DNA of 64,000 nt from contig JAKAEB010000001.1 in the NCBI GenBank assembly GCA_021818445.1, positions 16,664 through 80,663 of the forward strand. Reading direction: 5' to 3'. Origin of the DNA: Planctomycetota bacterium. GTDB taxonomy: Bacteria > Planctomycetota > Phycisphaerae > WQYP01. How positions within the stretch are numbered: the first letter of the stretch is position 1; each line of letters begins with the position of its first letter. The translations under genes and the position numbers were made by a program. Positions 53,713 to 64,000 of this stretch are shown here, piece after piece. The notes under the pieces were generated by a model. That model did no database searches and had not been told where the DNA came from. It saw only the letters and a program-made list of their open reading frames with translations.

Positions 53713-55296
53713 CTATACAAAGCAAATCTTGCGCGCTGCAAACAGACACATTCTTATCAGCATAAGCCCATGCCGGAAGCGCGAAATATTGGTCGATCCG
53801 TACACACGCTGTTTGTAGTGCACAGGAACATCCGTAATTTTCAGATTCAGCCGCGCCGCACCAAACAACAGATCAAAATCGCCAAACGGATCAAAATCTC
53901 CAAAATATGCCCGATTGGCGGCGATTCGATCGTATTCCATGCGTCTGAGGACCTTGGTACCACATAGCGTGTCCCGAATACTCTGGCCCAACAGAAACGA
54001 AAACGCATAGCCAAAGCCTTTGTTGGCGATCATATTTAAAAACTGCATGGCTTCCGATTCCATCGGATAGACCAATCGCGAACCATTGGCAAATTCCGCC
54101 TTGCCGCTCTGGATCAATTCAAAAAACCGGGGCAGTTCCTCGGGAGGAACGGAAATATCGCCATCCAGAATCGCCAGTACGTCACCGGTTGATTCCGCAA
54201 ACCCCAATCGCACCGCGTCACGCTTTCCCTTGCCGGTCTGGCGGTGGACACTCAAAATCATGTCACCTTGGTAATTGGCTACAGCCTCGTTTACCACATC
54301 CCATGTGTTGTCGGTACTGTGTCCTTCCACGAAAATAACTTCCTGCCGATCGGCAAATTTAGGTATTCGCTTAAGCAGGGGGCCAACATTACCCGCCTCA
54401 TTGCGCAGTGGCACCACAATACTCACGGAAGTTTGTAGTTTGGCTGAATTGTCGCTTGCCATGGTCGAACTGGCCCTTGGTGACAATTCAGAATCGTTTG
54501 CACCACCGGCGGCAGGGGTGTTGGTTTCGCCAGCACAAACAGGGGAATTTAAAGGCCGAGCGATGCATATATTCACCAAACATCCATGCCGCAGCAAAGG
54601 TAATGGTGCCGCCCAGCGATTTATAGCATTGCTCACGACCGGCACACCAAATGGCAGGAGAATAGATGGTTGGTGACGGATTATTTGAAAATCATGCTGA
54701 TACAGGAGGTTTTCCAACTCGTTGGGGGGTATCCAGCTTTCTTCCGGTACAGGACATTTAATACCGAGCAATTCCGCCAGTCTGATGAATGGCTGCCATA
54801 CGCGAGAATAGCTGCAAATAATCAGCCGAGTGCGGGCGTGGCACAGAGGTCTGATTTTTACCAGCAGATTATGGATATCATACACCTGCTGAATCACGCC
54901 GGAGAGAATGATGTAGTCGAAGGTTTCATGGGCTTTGAAGTCGTATTCCTCAATCGGACAGGCGTGAAACCGTAATTGCGGGTAACTTTTCGACGCATGC
55001 TCAATTAAATCGGGATTTAGATCAACGCCCACACCCAACTCGGGTGCCAGTGTGCCAAGTAAGAGGCCGTCGCCACAGCCAATATCCAGAATCTTCGCAC
55101 GTGGCAACACTATCTGGCCGATCAACCGATTGATATATCGGTGCAGATAAATATTCCGCCGCCGACTGGCGGCAAGCCTTCGGGCGTTGGCCTGCTCAAA
55201 TGCGAGCAGGCGTTGACGGTGCTCTTCCTCACCGGGCAGTGCTACGGCCTCATCGGCGGTGTCCAGATTCGCCATGCTTGTGCACTTTCCTTGCAA
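53713..55296 (-). CDS. Fused class I SAM-dependent methyltransferase / family-2 glycosyltransferase
   Basis: N-terminal ILDIGCGDGLL SAM motif. C-terminal VSIVVPLRNEAGNV...ILDGD GT2 (DxD) region. Confidence 0.7.
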   Translation of the reverse strand: MQGKCTSMANLDTADEAVALPGEEEHRQRLLAFEQANARRLAASRRRNIYLHRYINRLIGQIVLPRAKILDIGCGDGLLLGTLAPELGVGVDLNPDLIEHASKSYPQLRFHACPIEEYDFKAHETFDYIILSGVIQQVYDIHNLLVKIRPLCHARTRLIICSYSRVWQPFIRLAELLGIKCPVPEESWIPPNELENLLYQHDFQIIRHQPSILLPFGVPVVSNAINRWAAPLPLLRHGCLVNICIARPLNSPVCAGETNTPAAGGANDSELSPRASSTMASDNSAKLQTSVSIVVPLRNEAGNVGPLLKRIPKFADRQEVIFVEGHSTDNTWDVVNEAVANYQGDMILSVHRQTGKGKRDAVRLGFAESTGDVLAILDGDISVPPEELPRFFELIQSGKAEFANGSRLVYPMESEAMQFLNMIANKGFGYAFSFLLGQSIRDTLCGTKVLRRMEYDRIAANRAYFGDFDPFGDFDLLFGAARLNLKITDVPVHYKQRVYGSTNISRFRHGLMLIRMCLFAARKICFV

Positions 55297-55450: not shown

Positions 55451-56992
55451 TTACGTCGCATCCGAGGCCGCCGATTCGGCCGCACTTGCTTCTGTTTTGG
55501 CTGATTCTGCCTGTGGCTTTTCAGCATCAGCGGCTTGTGCGTCCTGCTGGGCCTTGGCTTGCGCTTCTTCGCGCAGGGCTTTGGCCTTGGCGGCTTTTTC
55601 GTCCTGAATCGTCTTCCATTCCTCTTCACTTATCTCACGCACATTGCAAGATTTAATGAGACCATCGAGGATGCTTGCCTGCACGAGTTCGCGGGTAATC
55701 TGATTGATCAAACCTGTCTGACGGGCCCGCTCGGCAAATTTATCAATGTTTTCTCCAGCTTGCTGGCTTAATTCCAGCAGGCGGTCCATGACTTCCTCGC
55801 GGGATACCTGAATATCTTCCTCGTTGCCGACTATCCCGAGGATAATCTCCCGGATGCAATTCAAACGCGCCTGGGGCGCTATGGCCTGCATCAAGGCACT
55901 GGGGTTCGCCTGTATCTGATCCACCGTAACACCCGCCCCCATCATACGTCGGGCCTGACTCTCAAAGAGAGCCTGGCAATGGCGGGTGTAGTATCGGGTG
56001 GGCAGCGGAAAGGTGATGGCATTTTCCAGAGCCTCCATCATCTGCCCGCGGACGGCATCGTCTGACTGCTGCTGCAATCGTTTGGCCATGGCATCACGCA
56101 TCTGCGCGTGCAGGTCTTCAATGTTTTCAAAACCATTGGAAGTAACAAATTCTTCATCAATTTCAGGCAGCACCAGGTGTGAATTGTGAATAATCTCGCC
56201 CTTAAGCGTCAAATCCACATCGCGCGGTATGGCGCTTTCACTTTCCGGCCCGGCCTTGAAGGTGATTTCAATCGGGTTGCCGGTCGCCTTGCCTAATAAA
56301 TATTCATTAAGACCCGGTATCTGTACATCGGACACAAAGCCCCCGTCAAACACCCGTGAGTATTCCATCTTATGCAGCACCGTACCGTCCGCCCGGGTAA
56401 TCTCACCTTTGATGAATGTTTGATCTCCCTGCTCGATCGGGCCGGCCGCCGGCTGCATGATGCCCATGGTCCGACGCAAATGATCCAAAGCCTTGTTGAT
56501 CCGCTCTTCGGTGACTTCAAACTTTGGTCGCAGCAGACTGATTGCCGTCAGATCGGGCAGCGGAACTTCCGGCAATATCTCAATGTCCAACGTGAAGGTG
56601 AGGGGTCCTTCTTTTGGCATGGTCAAATCGTGCGGTTCGTAGGTAGGCTCTCCAAGCATGCGGAAGTTATTCTCTGCAACGACTGCGTCGAGCACTCGCT
56701 TGATCTGATTTTCGAGAAATTCCCGGCGTAAGCCATCACCGAAACGCTTTTCAATGACACGCTGGGGTGCCCGCCCCTTACGGAAACCAGGCAGCACCAC
56801 TTCGCTCCTCATCACTGCCATTGACGAGTTATAAGCATCCTGCCAGACGGATTCGGGCATGCTCACCTTTACTTTACGTTCCACCGACGAAGCAGCATCG
56901 ATACTCACTTCGCACTTTTTGAGTAGTTCGCTGTCTGTCATTGAATTCGGACCGGAGCCAATATTATCTGTCAATTCGTTTTCTACTGCCAT
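55451..56992 (-). CDS. tig: Trigger factor with Lys/Ala/Glu-rich C-terminal extension
   Basis: Ribosome-binding N-domain, FKBP-like PPIase segment (GEITRADGTVL...FDGG) and C-domain. Acidic/Ala-rich tail AQAKAQQDAQAADAEKPQAESAKTEAS. The start may be the internal MTDSELL. Confidence 0.8.
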   Translation of the reverse strand: MAVENELTDNIGSGPNSMTDSELLKKCEVSIDAASSVERKVKVSMPESVWQDAYNSSMAVMRSEVVLPGFRKGRAPQRVIEKRFGDGLRREFLENQIKRVLDAVVAENNFRMLGEPTYEPHDLTMPKEGPLTFTLDIEILPEVPLPDLTAISLLRPKFEVTEERINKALDHLRRTMGIMQPAAGPIEQGDQTFIKGEITRADGTVLHKMEYSRVFDGGFVSDVQIPGLNEYLLGKATGNPIEITFKAGPESESAIPRDVDLTLKGEIIHNSHLVLPEIDEEFVTSNGFENIEDLHAQMRDAMAKRLQQQSDDAVRGQMMEALENAITFPLPTRYYTRHCQALFESQARRMMGAGVTVDQIQANPSALMQAIAPQARLNCIREIILGIVGNEEDIQVSREEVMDRLLELSQQAGENIDKFAERARQTGLINQITRELVQASILDGLIKSCNVREISEEEWKTIQDEKAAKAKALREEAQAKAQQDAQAADAEKPQAESAKTEASAAESAASDAT

Positions 56993-57313
56993 AAAAAGTT
57001 ACCATCCCTTTTTTAGATGCGAAATAGCTGAAACGGGCAATTGGAATGACGAAACGTGAGTGGCGTCGTGTGCCCACTTGCGCTCATCGCGACCTACGCC
57101 GGTCACCGTGCCGTGCCGATACCTCGCGAAATGCGACCGACAAACTGTCGTACCGCAGCACCGTATGTTAATGCGATACGGTTAAACGCACAAGCGGTTG
57201 TTGACGAGACTGCCGTAAGGCTCTAAACTTCAAACCGTTGGCGGGCGGAAGGGGCGAAGTGGTTCGCGCCGCCCGAGAAAGTCCATTGTGATATGAAAAG
57301 GTCGGAGTAATAG

Positions 57314-57394
57314 ATGCCCAAACCGCGCAGAAGACGAAAAATCGGTAGTAAAAAGCGACATGCCAAGTGGAAGGCGCGTCATCACATTCAGTGA
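57314..57394 (+). CDS. 26-aa ultra-basic peptide (candidate tiny ribosomal-type protein)
   Basis: MPKPRRRRKIGSKKRHAKWKARHHIQ. GGTCGGAG upstream. Immediately followed by a strong terminator. Too short to be in the track. Confidence 0.35.
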   Translation: MPKPRRRRKIGSKKRHAKWKARHHIQ

Positions 57395-57444
57395 TCGCTC
57401 GCCGCCTCTCCGTGGCTACACAAAAAAATCAGCTTACCAAACTT

Positions 57445-57490
57445 GGAGTTGGGGTGTCGTCAAAACACCCCAACTCCAGTTTTCTTTTGG
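57445..57490. terminator. Bidirectional rho-independent terminator (13-bp stem)
   Basis: GGAGTTGGGGTGT-cgtcaaa-ACACCCCAACTCC with AGTTTTCTTTTGG on the plus side and AAGTTTGG...ATTTTTTT on the minus side. Sits between the tiny ORF end and the leuA stop. Confidence 0.65.
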
Positions 57491-57514
57491 CGTGAAGGCA
57501 CTCGGCCCCCAACG

Positions 57515-59086
<1,572 letters not shown>

Positions 59087-59102
59087 GGCGCTACTCCATA
59101 GT

Positions 59103-59136
59103 AAAACAAAAAACCCCGCGATTTTGGCTCGCAGGG
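59103..59136 (-). terminator. leu attenuator terminator hairpin + U-tract
   Basis: Minus strand: CCCTGCGA-gccaaaa-TCGCGGGG followed by TTTTTTGTTTT, ~17 nt before the leuA ATG. Confidence 0.55.
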
Positions 59137-59167
59137 TTTCAGGATCAATCAAAAATAATGGAACACC

Positions 59168-59230
59168 CTAAGAGCTTGCCGAAATTACTCGTGTAAGTAG
59201 AAGCAGCAGGCTGATGGTGTTTTGGGTCAT
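59168..59230 (-). CDS. Leucine operon leader peptide (5 consecutive Leu codons)
   Basis: Minus strand atg acc caa aac acc atc agc ctg ctg ctt cta ctt aca cga gta att tcg gca agc tct tag = MTQNTISLLLLLTRVISASS. GAAAGGGAAACG RBS-like upstream. Confidence 0.5.
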   Translation of the reverse strand: MTQNTISLLLLLTRVISASS

Positions 59231-59762
59231 CGTTTCCCTTTCAACTGGTAATAATGGTAATGCCAAGGGGTAAAATGTCAAATCCCAGTCGGCAGCGGGG
59301 CGGTTTCACACAAAGCACGCCGTTGTCTATTGCGGCCCATCCGCCACCCGCCAAAGCGCCTACCACCCCCAACCCGGTGGTCATATGACATTCGTGGCAA
59401 TGCTGCCCACATATATGATTCTGGGCTGGCCCGTAAGCGCTCATTTACCGAAGCCTCAGCCAATGCCAATATCTTTGCGAGCGTAGCGCTCCCCGCTATG
59501 TAAATGGTTTCTTATTAATCGCGGAGGCCATAGCATTGACACTGCTGAGAATATTCGAACTGGCTATGCCTCGATTTTCCGCGGGGCAACCCCGGCGCTG
59601 CATACTTTGGCGGAATGATGCGGTCTTTGGCGAGGTAATGGACGGATTTTGGCCGCATCGGGGGGCTTCGGTCATCAGAGATTCGTGGGCGGAAAACTGC
59701 ATGACCCACACCTGCGGCAATTTCGTCTTGACTTGCCCCCTTGTCGGTTTATCATCCGCAGT

Positions 59763-60023
59763 ATGAGAAAGTTTTCATCATTACTGGTTTTGACTTTTCT
59801 GGCGGCCTTGTTCCTCAGTACTGCCACCACATTTGGTCAGTTGGAAGAGGCACATAAGCTAAGCCCCGTCATTCCGAAGTTAAGTTCGCAGGCCCGGCCC
59901 AGCTTGGTGCCCATCTACGCGATTGCGGTCATTGCGTTTCTCGGGGTGACCGCCGTGCTGGCCCGCAGTGCCCATCGTGGTGCAAGGCGTGGCGGGCGAG
60001 ATGAGACGGTGCAGGTGGTTTAA
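59763..60023 (+). CDS. Small secreted/membrane-anchored hypothetical protein
   Basis: MRKFSSLLVLTFLAALFLSTATTFG signal peptide. C-terminal hydrophobic helix and Arg cluster (ARSAHRGARRGGRDE). Confidence 0.35.
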   Translation: MRKFSSLLVLTFLAALFLSTATTFGQLEEAHKLSPVIPKLSSQARPSLVPIYAIAVIAFLGVTAVLARSAHRGARRGGRDETVQVV

Positions 60024-60091
60024 TGGGGCATCGGGCGTGGTCCGATCGCCAATAACAAACAGGATTCTTTCCCTTACGCGGAGGCTTCATC

Positions 60092-60394
60092 ATGAAGGCA
60101 AAATCGTGGCTTATCGTGGGCTTGGGTCTGGTCAACGCGGTGCTGATTGGCGGCTTGATTGGTCGAAGTCAATTAGGCCTTTCCAAGGCGCAGGCGGCTG
60201 TCAATTTGCAAGGTGTGCGACCACTGACGGTTTCAGGGCGTTCCGGTAACGCCATGATCCTCTGGTTCTACAACGTAGATAATGGCCTGCTCACGGCGGT
60301 AGAAACACCGGGTAACGATCCGCAAATGGGCCGTTTTGCGTTCACGCGCAGTGTTAAGCTGGACATCCGGCGCGTAAAATCTCATCTGCATTGA
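60092..60394 (+). CDS. Small secreted hypothetical protein, paralog 1
   Basis: Signal peptide. Shares a Gxxx(I/V)LxxxxVDxx(N/D)GLL core with the next ORF. Confidence 0.4.
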   Translation: MKAKSWLIVGLGLVNAVLIGGLIGRSQLGLSKAQAAVNLQGVRPLTVSGRSGNAMILWFYNVDNGLLTAVETPGNDPQMGRFAFTRSVKLDIRRVKSHLH

Positions 60395-60466
60395 TCAACC
60401 AAACCGTAGCGGTCGCATGCCCAACGGCAGCGACCATCAGACCGACATTGGCTTGAAAGGAATAAC

Positions 60467-60754
60467 ATGAAAAACTCCAATCTTCTCATAGCGTTATTAA
60501 CCACCACGGCCGTCATCCTGGCCTGCCTCCTGGCACTCGGCGGCGCACCTAAGGCATCGCGGGCGGACGTGCTGGCGTCATCAACTGATTTTCAGTTGTT
60601 GACTTCATCATCCATGGCCGGCGAACCGGACGTGCTCAATATTGTTGACTGCCGGGACGGATTGCTGTTGATGTACAAGTTGCAGGGGCGGCATATTCAC
60701 CTTATCAACGCGTTTAATCTGAATCCGAATCTGCATATGCCGCACCGGCCATGA
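60467..60754 (+). CDS. Small secreted hypothetical protein, paralog 2
   Basis: Signal peptide. GEPDVLNIVDCRDGLLLMYKLQG parallels GNAMILWFYNVDNGLLTAVETPG in the preceding ORF. Confidence 0.4.
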   Translation: MKNSNLLIALLTTTAVILACLLALGGAPKASRADVLASSTDFQLLTSSSMAGEPDVLNIVDCRDGLLLMYKLQGRHIHLINAFNLNPNLHMPHRP

Positions 60755-60808
60755 TGGCACGCTGCGCGGAATCTATGGCTTACATACTGGAAAAGGGGAT
60801 CGCGGACA

Positions 60809-61930
60809 GTGCTTGAATCGGTTTCATCTATAGCCCAGCGGGTGCTTAATGGCGAACTAATCAGTCGATATGACGCCCGTGCGCTGCAGGCTGTGGGCGG
60901 CGATGACATTTACGATCTGTTCTATTGGGCCAACAAAATTCGCATTCAATTCAAGGGTCGAGATGTGCGATTTTGTGCCATTGTGGCGGCAAAAGTTGGT
61001 GGATGTTCAGAAGATTGCCAGTTTTGCGCCCAGTCATCACATTATCAAACGGCCGTACAGGGCCAGACCTTTTTAACCGACGAACAGATACTTGCATCGG
61101 CGGAGCATGCCCAGCGCGTGGGTGCCGACAGCTTTGGCATTGTGAACAGCGGTCGCGGGCCGACACGTTCAGAAATGGAAAATTGGCTCGGGCCCTTGCT
61201 GGGCAAAATTGCCGCTGAAGGGAAAACGCGTGCCTGTGCCACGCTTGGGGCGCTGACGCCGCAAACGGCGGAATTTTTGCACCGGTCGGGTGTACGGCGT
61301 GTCAATCATAATCTTGAAACCAGCGAGCGGTTTTATCCGCAAATTGTTTCCACCCACCCCTATTCCGAGCGGCTCAATACGCTGCGGCACGCGAAGGCGG
61401 CGGGCTTATCGTTATGCTCGGGGGGTATCTTCGGCATGGGCGAAACGTGGGAAGATCGTTTTGATATGGTCTTTACCCTGCGCGATATCGGCGTGGATGT
61501 GATGCCGGTCAATTTTCTCAATGCCATCGCTGGTACGCCGTTGGAAAACCAGCCAAAACTTCCGCCGATGGAATGCCTGAAGATCATCAGCATCTGTCGA
61601 TTTATTAATCCTACGGTGGAATTGAAGGTGGCAGGTGGACGCGAGGTATGCCTGCGCGACCTGCAAAGCTGGATATTCTTCGCCGGGGCTGACAGCACCA
61701 TGATTGGCAATTATTTAACCACCTATGGCCGCAGTCCGGACGTTGACCATCAGATGGTTCGCGATCTGGGGCTTGCCTGGCAAAGCTACCATGAGGGGCC
61801 GGTGATGCCGGAAAGTGAACGGCCGCGCATGGCACGCGTTTCGCACACTGGGAGATACCAGATTCCCATCTATCATGAGGCGGACGTTGAACTGGACGTG
61901 GAAAAAGCGGCCGGGGCGCTGAAGGCCTAG
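60809..61930 (+). CDS. bioB: Biotin synthase (radical SAM) with C-terminal extension
   Basis: CSEDCQFCAQ CxxxCxxC radical-SAM cluster motif and BioB-type downstream Cys residues. 373 aa. Confidence 0.85.
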   Translation: MLESVSSIAQRVLNGELISRYDARALQAVGGDDIYDLFYWANKIRIQFKGRDVRFCAIVAAKVGGCSEDCQFCAQSSHYQTAVQGQTFLTDEQILASAEHAQRVGADSFGIVNSGRGPTRSEMENWLGPLLGKIAAEGKTRACATLGALTPQTAEFLHRSGVRRVNHNLETSERFYPQIVSTHPYSERLNTLRHAKAAGLSLCSGGIFGMGETWEDRFDMVFTLRDIGVDVMPVNFLNAIAGTPLENQPKLPPMECLKIISICRFINPTVELKVAGGREVCLRDLQSWIFFAGADSTMIGNYLTTYGRSPDVDHQMVRDLGLAWQSYHEGPVMPESERPRMARVSHTGRYQIPIYHEADVELDVEKAAGALKA

Positions 61931-61931
61931 C

Positions 61932-63056
61932 ATGACTGCGCACGGGGTGGCCACACCTGCCTCCCACGCCAATATCCGGCGATATGCCAATTTGTCGGCA
62001 TGTGCGTTGCGCACTCCCTTGGGGGCGTCACCCGATGAAAACTGGCAATCAATCGTAGTCGATCGCCATGAATTGCGCAGCAGCAAGCTTATTCCGGGCG
62101 TTGATGAGGCGTTGGCCAGGCGGTTTCCCAATCAGGCCGGGCTTTTTGGGCTGGACCGTGTTATTAAAATTGCATTACTGGCGGCTTCCGACGCATTGGA
62201 TAAAACTGCCAGGCCTGAGTTAAACGATGCTGACGGCCTGTTTGTTGCCACCAGCAAAGGACCTGTTCAGACGCTGATCCGTGCGCTGGATAATCCCTCC
62301 GGTGTATCCGCGTCTGATGCAACGCAGATCGCGCTGGGGCCGGCGGCCATCGGTTATTATTTGCGGCAGCAGTTGGGGACACCCGAAACAGTGCACACAT
62401 CGGTAGCGGCGTGCGCCGGATCACTGGCGGCGGCTTCGCGTGCATATGAGGCGCTTTTAACGGGTCGGCACCGGCGTGCCATTGTGGTTGCCGCCGACTC
62501 GTCAATCCATCCACTGTTTGATGCAAGTTTTTCGCGGTTGGGAATTTTGGCACCGGCGGACCAAGACGGAAATCGCCAATGCCGTCCATTTGATCCGTCT
62601 GGCAGAGGGTTTTTTATTACCGAGGCGGCGGCTGCCATTGTGCTGGAAATTATGCCGGGGGAAAATCTGCGTGTGGAGGGAACCTGGCTGGGCGGTGATG
62701 CGACGGATTTGTTGGCTACGGACTCGGATGCGACATCGTTAAAGCGAGGCATCCGGACCTTGGCCGGCGGGGGGGATATGGATTTTGTTCATGCCCACGC
62801 CACTGGTACCCGGCATGATGCCCATGAACTGGCTGCCATTGCGACCTTGGGACCCACCTATGTATTTTCGCATAAGCGCTTTTTGGGACATTGCCTTGGT
62901 GCATCCGGCCTGGTGGGGCTGGTGCTTTCGGCCATGTGTCATCGGCGTCACATGACGCTGCTGGGCGATTTACTACCTTGCCGGTCGACAAGCCTCACGC
63001 TGGCGCAGGGGTTTGGCGGGCATATCGGTGCTGTGCGGCTCGGTTATGGCGATTAG
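61932..63056 (+). CDS. Divergent/truncated beta-ketoacyl-ACP synthase I/II family condensing enzyme
   Basis: Active-site Cys in SVAACAGSLAAA. CRPFD (SRPFD-like). HAHATGTRHDAHE (EAHGTGT-like). SHKRFLGHCLGASG (KSxxGHxLGAAG-like). 2-nt gap after bioB. Confidence 0.7.
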   Translation: MTAHGVATPASHANIRRYANLSACALRTPLGASPDENWQSIVVDRHELRSSKLIPGVDEALARRFPNQAGLFGLDRVIKIALLAASDALDKTARPELNDADGLFVATSKGPVQTLIRALDNPSGVSASDATQIALGPAAIGYYLRQQLGTPETVHTSVAACAGSLAAASRAYEALLTGRHRRAIVVAADSSIHPLFDASFSRLGILAPADQDGNRQCRPFDPSGRGFFITEAAAAIVLEIMPGENLRVEGTWLGGDATDLLATDSDATSLKRGIRTLAGGGDMDFVHAHATGTRHDAHELAAIATLGPTYVFSHKRFLGHCLGASGLVGLVLSAMCHRRHMTLLGDLLPCRSTSLTLAQGFGGHIGAVRLGYGD

Positions 63057-63130
63057 CGGCCGCCGCGCTGCACATCGAGATCGGGCACTACCGGCATAAC
63101 TGCCCTAAAATGAGGTTGCAGGAGAAGCTG

Positions 63131-64000
63131 ATGCGAATTGCAATGGCGCAGATAAATCCGACGGTGGGCGATATCAATGGCAATGCCAAAAAGCTTTGCG
63201 ATGCGATTCATCAGGCGCGTGATAAAGGTGCGCAGTTGGTGGTAACGCCGGAATTATCATTGCTGGGTTACCCGCCGCGCGACCTGCTGTTGAAGCCGGC
63301 GGTGCTTAAGCACATGTATGAAGCGCTTAAATATGTGGCCGGAAAAAGCATGGGCATAACTACGTTAGTCGGTTTTGCGGATGCGAATCCGGCACCGTCG
63401 GGGCGAGGTCTTTTTAACGCGGTGGCGGCAGTTCGCGATGGGCAGATTTTGTCCCGTGCGTATAAAAGCCTGCTGCCGACCTACGATGTGTTTGATGAAA
63501 CACGCTACTTTGAACCCGGTCCCCGGGTAGAATCCATCCACGTGGAGGGGCTTGTCGTCGGCCTGACCATTTGTGAAGACCTCTGGAATGATGCAGAGTT
63601 ATTTCCCCGGCCCATCTATCATTTTGATCCGATCAGAGAAATTGTTTCATCCGGGGCGCAGATATTGGTAAACATCAGTGCGTCGCCCTTTGTGCTTGGG
63701 AAAAATGCTTTGCGGCGGCGTCTGATTACACATCAGGCCAAACGCTGGAAGGTGCCGATTGTGTATGTTAATCAGGTAGGGGCGAATGACGAGCTTATTT
63801 TTGACGGTAATTCCATCGCGGTCGATGCCCATGGAAATATATTGGCTTGCGCCGGCGACTTCATACCGGATATGGTGGTGACGGATGTTTCGCTCCCCGC
63901 TGAATCCACGCCAGCAGAGGCTCGCTCGATCCCACCCGAAAAGTCGGATATGGAAACGTTGTATCGGGCTTTGGTGCTGGGCATTCGGGATTATGCGTCA
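63131..64000 (+). CDS. nadE: Glutamine-dependent NAD+ synthetase, N-terminal CN-hydrolase domain (continues past window end)
   Basis: MRIAMAQINPTVGDINGNAKK... and VTPELSLLGYPPRDLL. Catalytic-Cys region LTICEDLW. GGAGAAG RBS. Not in track because no stop lies within the window. Confidence 0.65.
   Translation, partial: MRIAMAQINPTVGDINGNAKKLCDAIHQARDKGAQLVVTPELSLLGYPPRDLLLKPAVLKHMYEALKYVAGKSMGITTLVGFADANPAPSGRGLFNAVAAVRDGQILSRAYKSLLPTYDVFDETRYFEPGPRVESIHVEGLVVGLTICEDLWNDAELFPRPIYHFDPIREIVSSGAQILVNISASPFVLGKNALRRRLITHQAKRWKVPIVYVNQVGANDELIFDGNSIAVDAHGNILACAGDFIPDMVVTDVSLPAESTPAEARSIPPEKSDMETLYRALVLGIRDYAS

Follow-up and report, generated by a model that had tools for sequence, protein, structure and literature searches.

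A divergent bioB-linked ketosynthase as a candidate for the missing early biotin pathway of Phycisphaerae

Five routes to the pimelate moiety of biotin have been described (BioC-BioH, BioW/BioI, BioZ, BioE and a small fatty acid synthase, or mini-FAS, of Desulfovibrio); the catalytic triad of BioZ is Cys-His-Asn, and in Escherichia coli FabF and FabB elongate biotin precursors that are masked as methyl esters. BioZ is a dedicated condensing enzyme that acts on glutaryl-CoA and malonyl-ACP (acyl carrier protein) and replaces BioC and BioH, with the housekeeping type II fatty acid synthase (FAS II) finishing pimeloyl-ACP (PMC7645780, PMC8024396). The bio cluster of Desulfovibrio vulgaris, DVU2558-2565, carries a FabF-annotated ketoacyl-ACP synthase (KAS), DVU2563, which sits between bioB and bioF/A/D along with FabG-like and FabZ-like genes and an ACP of its own; the product of the cluster was predicted to be pimeloyl-ACP (Rodionov 2004), and transposon fitness data show that the cluster is needed for biotin-free growth, apparently without methyl esters (Trotter 2023, PMC10102598). 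Here we describe, in a 64-kb stretch of a Planctomycetota contig (JAKAEB010000001.1; the whole stretch is hereafter the window), a bioB gene followed directly by a divergent, stand-alone KAS gene that may serve the same early part of the pathway in Phycisphaerae.

By analogy with these systems, the Phycisphaerae arrangement appears to resemble BioZ in its logic and DVU2563 in its fold. BioZ of alpha-proteobacteria is the closest functional analogue of the role proposed here, that of a single enzyme working with housekeeping FAS II, but it has a KAS III (FabH-like) fold, whereas the Phycisphaerae KAS has a KAS I/II fold with Cys-His-His-Lys. With the Desulfovibrio cluster it has in common a KAS I/II-domain gene encoded with bioB; that cluster, however, comes with its own ACP and reductase- and dehydratase-like genes and with flanking bioF/A/D, whereas the Phycisphaerae KAS stands alone with bioB, none of the others lying within 10 kb, and the phylum differs as well (DVU2563 and the Phycisphaerae KAS are compared by description, not by sequence). 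What sets the Phycisphaerae arrangement apart is thus a KAS that is the only FAS-like gene, pairs only with bioB, occurs in a different phylum and belongs to a distinct sequence family. An earlier note on this DNA had supposed a biotin-dedicated enzyme of the KAS I/II type to be undescribed; FabF-like DVU2563, already on record and needed when biotin is absent (PMC10102598), shows otherwise.

Both genes lie on the forward strand and are as the earlier note had read them, with bioB directly before a condensing enzyme. The first (60809-61930, +; GTG start, 373 residues) encodes a biotin synthase that scores 364 bits against the BioB equivalog model TIGR00433 (cut-off 225) and holds Radical_SAM and BATS domains by Pfam. 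The second (61932-63056, +; ATG start, 374 residues) encodes a KAS I/II-fold condensing enzyme with N- and C-terminal ketoacyl-synthase domains (PF00109, 66 bits; PF02801, 33 bits), and its fold is supported by hhalign and AlphaFold2 as described below. Between the bioB stop TAG (61928-61930) and the KAS ATG lies a single nucleotide (TAG c ATG) rather than the two first reported. Contigs of several assemblies, including the metagenome-assembled genome (MAG) GCA_027426495.1, match the stretch, with a KAS identity of 100% and a near-identical BioB.

The Cys/His/His motifs pointed out earlier are all present in the KAS, namely ACAGS with Cys161 (codon TGC, 62412-62414, +), HAHATGT with His289 (62796-62798, +) and GHCLGASG with His320, and they are joined by Lys315, in the segment KRFLGH running from Lys315 to His320 (62874-62891, +), and by the gate Phe361 of a GFGG motif (63012-63014, +; 84/84 members). 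In the alignments these residues match FabF Cys163, His303, His340, Lys335 and gatekeeper Phe400, respectively, and they are invariant in the 40-84 family members examined, so the machinery for decarboxylative Claisen condensation is intact. Nor is the enzyme truncated, as had been proposed: the profile-profile alignment is global (KAS residues 14-373 against E. coli FabF 1-413, probability 100%), the shortfall of about 40 residues arises from internal deletions, the main one removing about 19 residues from the stretch that links the second catalytic His to GFGG, and an AlphaFold2 model built on a 40-sequence alignment shows a complete KAS fold (mean predicted local distance difference test 92.9, predicted TM-score 0.93) with disorder at residues 1-14 only. 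The best Protein Data Bank matches of this model by Foldseek are FabF, KasA, mitochondrial KAS and type II polyketide synthase ketosynthases (TM-score 0.81-0.83, about 20% identity), all fold matches being of the KAS I/II type, and the window KAS gave no significant match to the KAS III domains PF08545 and PF08541. Near-invariant His193, Cys217, His287, His314 and His337 (about 62508-62942 in the window) are without counterpart in FabF; two of them flank catalytic residues, His287 standing two positions before His289 and His314 adjoining Lys315, and these extra residues could form part of the active-site lining or serve to bind a metal or ligand.

With its two-domain thiolase fold, its catalytic residues and its Phe gate, the window KAS resembles FabF and FabB (TM-score about 0.82 to FabF/KasA structures), yet it is only about 18-22% identical to them, lies below all curated cut-offs and has FabF Ile108, Ala193, Gly198 and Arg206 replaced. 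Every NCBIfam KAS model scores far below its cut-off, including the housekeeping models TIGR03150 (fabF; 69 bits, cut-off 493.75) and PRK07967 (FabB/KAS I; 23 bits, cut-off 630). The best-scoring, PRK05952, is a compact 384-residue beta-ketoacyl-ACP synthase model of similar length, but the window KAS is not a member because it reaches 80 bits against a cut-off of 455.

A search of 5.8 billion proteins with the window KAS returned 97 clusters at 102-825 bits, the next matches being generic KAS at 60 bits or less, and an exhaustive profile search added at least 60 more clusters at 50% identity (340-490 residues), with the motif [TS]SKG in 57/62; when a Tepidisphaerales member served as the query, 864 proteins reached E<=1e-20. 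All organism-named matches are Phycisphaerae, Phycisphaerales, Tepidisphaeraceae or unclassified Planctomycetota, the named entry among the divergent members being Tepidisphaeraceae. Scanning one genome per GTDB species gave 206 relatives, and the best 80 of these 206, which form our species-level locus set, are without exception MAGs of the class Phycisphaerae or of unclassified Planctomycetota. By neighbour-joining, the family is monophyletic on a long stem, apart from E. coli FabF and FabB and from a Tepidisphaeraceae FabF; it divides into two main branches, Phycisphaerales-type and Tepidisphaerales-type, with KAS identity of 31-38% between them. One Tepidisphaeraceae contig (L053) carries a canonical FabF (L053:3-1175; 52% identical to E. 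coli FabF, GSGIGG motif, 388 bits by tblastn) about 4 kb upstream of its bioB-KAS pair, and because the two share a contig the family member in that genome must be a further paralogue, distinct from the elongating housekeeping enzyme, for which this FabF offers an internal control. Two family members, L018 and L019, occur on different contigs of a single Phycisphaerales MAG (DAHXLH01), of which L019 has no bioB upstream and L018 ends 131 nucleotides (nt) upstream of the KAS; the double copy stems either from paralogous expansion of the family or from faulty binning.

The link to bioB recurs across the family. Under a strict definition, with bioB ending no more than 700 nt upstream of the KAS on the same strand, bioB directly precedes the KAS in 34 of the 73 loci (among the 80) that have at least 1.3 kb of upstream DNA; several further bioB genes lie within about 1 kb and one is divergent; under a looser 1.1-kb criterion, with six loci added, 41 of 77 classifiable loci carry the pair. 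It is also the commonest neighbour pair (28 of 72 loci with a called KAS open reading frame (ORF), against 12 for KAS-nadE). Approached from the other side, six contigs picked through BioB homologues have the KAS directly downstream of bioB in four, and the two frames overlap by 4 nt in L095 and L097. L096 and L099 hold a bioB with no KAS after it. In L100 (7105-8230) the KAS is called at only 220 residues, following a 464-nt gap after bioB, which could mean a copy in decay or with a frameshift, or else a fault of the assembly. Since the pairing recurs in about half of the 80 species-level genomes, it is not a chance juxtaposition; bioB-adjacent members turn up in both main branches of the tree and in two orders of Phycisphaerae, and the genes downstream of the KAS differ by locus (nadE, a QTMAN-like gene, an RDD/GYF protein and others).

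The bioB that fills the upstream slot belongs to one of two lineages, both of which pass TIGR00433. The window type, found in 29 loci, is 65-91% identical to the window BioB there, whose orthologues across Phycisphaerae show 70-93% identity. The window BioB has the radical-SAM CxxxCxxC motif (C66/C70/C73) but does not carry the Type I, E. coli-like set of ligands (Cys97, Cys128, Cys188, Arg260), the definition of which rests on the auxiliary 2Fe-2S cluster (PMC10813225). It has instead Cys56 at the position of E. coli Ser43, Gly at Cys97 and Lys at Arg260, an alternative, Type II-like motif (compare PMC10813225). The second lineage, in 12 loci, is 51-57% identical to E. coli BioB and about 30% to the window BioB, scores 377 bits against TIGR00433 and keeps the Type I ligands Cys97/Cys128/Cys188/Arg260. 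On the KAS tree the lineages intermingle (at loci including L052, L057 and L070), so the pairing has survived bioB replacement; this pattern suggests that bioB was exchanged in place repeatedly while the KAS stayed, an exchange that perhaps tracks oxygen exposure. Because the pair occurs in both main branches and two BioB lineages fill the slot, we argue that the pairing is under selection. The window BioB also has a C-terminal extension of about 50 residues past the BATS domain (residues about 325-373, window 61780-61927), which is conserved, orthologue alignments reaching residues 360-372 at 65-91% identity.

The KAS also differs from FabF in residues aligned to the acyl pocket, which were counted over 84 family members aligned with MAFFT, with the hhalign profile-profile alignment as an independent second alignment. 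In both, the family signature Thr-Ser-Lys-Gly (TSKG; Thr107-Ser108-Lys109 in the window KAS, codons 62250-62258, +) aligns with FabF Ser106-Gly107-Ile108-Gly109, such that Gly107 is replaced by Ser (Ser108) and Ile108 by Lys (Lys109) in 84/84 members each. Ala193 and Gly198, which we take to be acyl-pocket residues of FabF, are replaced by Ser in 84/84 and by Phe in 79/84, and Thr195 by His in 81/84, while Phe202 is retained in 75/84; the ACP-contact residue Arg206 is Gly in 83/84. The hydrophobic pocket of the FabF/FabB type, with Ile108 (FabF) or Gly (FabB) at the back gate, is therefore not that of this family. In E. coli FabF, Ile108 and Phe202 form a back gate near C7-C8 of the bound acyl chain, the I108F substitution limits elongation to short chains, and the authors of the review place the end of the glutaryl-ACP methyl ester, a precursor in the biotin route of E. 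coli, at this gate (PMC9006962). A Lys at the back gate with nearby serines and a deeper, bulky Phe would suit the omega-carboxylate of a C3-C5 dicarboxylic primer.

Taken together, these features make it plausible, if not quite probable, that the KAS is a FabF-derived, decarboxylating condensing enzyme dedicated to the biotin pathway, and not an enzyme of bulk fatty acid synthesis; of the readings considered here, this is the likeliest. In the mechanism we propose, Cys161 would be loaded with a short acyl primer bearing a free or polar omega-carboxyl (malonyl- or glutaryl-ACP/CoA), and malonyl-ACP would be decarboxylated with the help of His289, His320 and Lys315 and condensed to give 3-oxoglutaryl- and/or 3-oxopimeloyl-ACP. 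The Thr-Ser-Lys segment, Ser in place of Ala193 and Phe in place of Gly198 would make the acyl pocket shorter and more polar, so that the omega-carboxylate could be accepted without methyl-ester masking by BioC/BioH; housekeeping FabG, FabZ and FabI would then reduce the condensation product to pimeloyl-ACP, which would be taken up by the BioF-BioA-BioD-BioB steps, with bioF, bioA and bioD presumably located elsewhere in the genome. The fuller proposal, that the pimeloyl moiety of Phycisphaerae is made by one stand-alone FabF-derived ketosynthase that reads the free omega-carboxylate of malonyl or glutaryl primers through a Lys/Ser-lined, shortened pocket, thereby replacing BioC and BioH with no dedicated ACP or reductases, is put forward tentatively and as distinctly short of probable. 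The suggestion of the earlier note, a dedicated biotin KAS of the KAS I/II lineage, accordingly holds in part: a divergent but intact KAS I/II paralogue, a bioB link kept in two orders and polar or charged back-gate residues speak for it, while bioF/A/D, ACP and reductive FAS genes are missing nearby.

The surroundings of the pair were searched by tblastn with E. coli BioA, BioF, BioC, BioD, BioH, FabH, FabD and AcpP as queries (E<1e-4), and none of the eight has a match in the 64-kb window, in agreement with the earlier observation that bioC, bioH, bioF, bioD and bioA are not found near the pair. An Rfam search of 56900-64000 gave no match to a riboswitch or other RNA element. Upstream of bioB lie three small ORFs on the same strand, all without a Pfam match and separated from each other and from bioB by 54-72 nt: one of 124 residues as listed from TTG, with a hydrophobic stretch by eye (59649-60023, +; cluster c16, upstream of bioB in 7 loci), one of 100 residues (60092-60394, +; cluster c9, conserved upstream of bioB) and one of 95 residues, 54 nt from bioB (60467-60754, +; cluster c5, 11 loci), the latter two with an N-terminal hydrophobic segment by eye. 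Two to four such ORFs (about 65-125 residues) precede bioB in L095-L100 and the window, small unannotated genes occur at this place in both orders, and by eye they look paralogous, each with a hydrophobic segment at the N-terminus ahead of a short conserved domain; a HYExAFE-family protein (NF038001) is often found further upstream in Tepidisphaerales loci. Downstream, 75 nt 3' of the KAS, the window ends within the 5' part of nadE (63132-64000, +), encoding a glutamine-dependent NAD synthetase (CN_hydrolase and NAD_synthase domains, 564 residues in L001). This gene stands after the KAS in 12-17 loci, all of the Phycisphaerales-type branch, and probably shares a transcription unit with the KAS; it is without functional tie to biotin. 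An alpha/beta hydrolase in L008 was considered as a BioH analogue and rejected, being pectin/xylan acetylesterase-like and present in one locus only. Further away and unrelated to bioB-KAS, a 527-residue ORF (53713-55296, -) has a class I methyltransferase domain in its N-terminal part fused to a family-2 glycosyltransferase domain in its C-terminal part (Pfam, in L001).

Several observations weigh against a role of the KAS in biotin synthesis. When the same queries were run on 88 related loci of about 20 kb each, BioA, BioF, BioD, BioH, FabH, FabD and ACP were absent from all of them, the lone match being a weak BioC-like methyltransferase in L062 (E 5e-6). Aminotransferases beside the KAS or bioB (L097, L006, L015, L027, L099) were examined as BioF candidates and rejected as AspC-type transaminases by NCBIfam, and in several Tepidisphaerales loci a short-chain dehydrogenase/reductase (SDR) and a flavoprotein upstream of the KAS, considered as ketoreductase and enoyl reductase, proved to be a pteridine reductase and a YpdA-like disulfide reductase; with this pteridine reductase as the only SDR neighbour, no FabG-like or FabZ-like gene adjoins the KAS in the loci annotated by NCBIfam. 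Inverted-repeat and k-mer searches of the regions preceding bioB and stand-alone KAS genes revealed no common operator, with no signal exceeding that of shuffled controls. About half of the family members do not adjoin bioB, and co-transcription does not imply shared function here, because the block also holds the three small ORFs and nadE. Nor is the back-gate Lys diagnostic for carboxylate binding, because P0098, an unrelated PRK09185-like ketosynthase (381 residues, on a short metagenomic contig), has one too, with S-T-K-G at the Ile108 position; and BioZ holds the glutaryl carboxyl via two serines, Ser84 and Ser287, not via a lysine (PMC12625853). Finally, we found essentially no literature on biotin synthesis in Phycisphaerae, save a report of a closed 3.6-Mb Phycisphaeraceae genome, not known to carry bioB-KAS, without biotin synthesis genes and with a biotin transporter (PMC11136935).

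Alternatively, the KAS could belong to a separate lipid or polyketide-like pathway, such as one that makes a specialised membrane-lipid chain, with its position next to bioB due to inherited synteny or to housekeeping cofactor genes being loosely co-expressed. Members away from bioB lie beside MutL, the YpdA-like and pteridine reductases or TPR/membrane proteins, the one copy with a readable upstream flank (L019) in the two-copy MAG has no bioB beside it, nadE and the small ORFs sit in the same block, and across the 88 loci no other biotin gene ever adjoins the KAS. The same loci, however, never place next to the KAS the ACP, acyltransferase, reductase and dehydratase that such a pathway would need, and the frames of bioB and KAS overlap or nearly touch. 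Chance or mere inherited synteny is also made less likely by a pair that is kept in both main branches of the tree while its downstream genes change, and that outlasts the exchange of one bioB lineage for another. We thus regard a lipid or polyketide-like function as somewhat unlikely, albeit deserving serious attention.

Two further explanations start from narrower parts of the evidence. The short pocket suggested by Phe at Gly198 and Lys at Ile108 could be explained if the KAS initiated fatty acid synthesis from a short primer such as acetyl-CoA, thereby substituting for FabH, which was not seen in any locus (only 20 kb each). FabY of Pseudomonas, an initiating condensing enzyme of the KAS I/II type, offers a model for this, but it is much larger and has extra domains; a charged Lys and the Ser and His substitutions would be unexpected for an acetyl primer, the conserved bioB link is left unexplained, and we consider this function improbable. 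The position of the KAS immediately 3' of bioB, on the other hand, could point to a helper protein of BioB, for instance one that delivers substrate or supplies sulfur or clusters, in hosts that might only convert scavenged dethiobiotin. Such a factor has a precedent in mycobacterial Rv1590, which BioB needs to convert dethiobiotin to biotin (PMC11099021), and both the lack of nearby bioF/A/D by tblastn and the report of one Phycisphaeraceae genome as a biotin importer (PMC11136935) would agree with it. Yet the full Cys/His/His/Lys/Phe condensation machinery, needless for an accessory role, is invariant, the KAS is often encoded away from bioB, and a BioB-specific function is hard to reconcile with a KAS that partners both BioB types, whose auxiliary-cluster ligands differ; we give this explanation only a slim chance.

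The bioB-linked KAS is, in our view, a testable candidate for the early part of biotin synthesis that is still missing in this widespread class of bacteria. Planctomycetota abound in soils, in sediments and on the surfaces of algae, and which vitamins they supply or require is as a rule deduced from canonical markers alone; a family that spans the class, comprises hundreds of sequence clusters and is linked to bioB now provides a concrete gene candidate in this phylum. Should the biotin role be refuted, the family would stand as an unexplained, strongly conserved extra ketosynthase. If it is borne out, this would be the first early-stage biotin route proposed for Planctomycetota and would add to BioZ and the Desulfovibrio cluster a further pimelate route that rests on a condensing enzyme and arose independently; the FabF scaffold would have been retuned from hydrophobic to carboxylated primers, with possible use in dicarboxylic-acid and biotin engineering, and genome-based calls of biotin auxotrophy for Phycisphaerae and Planctomycetota would need revision.

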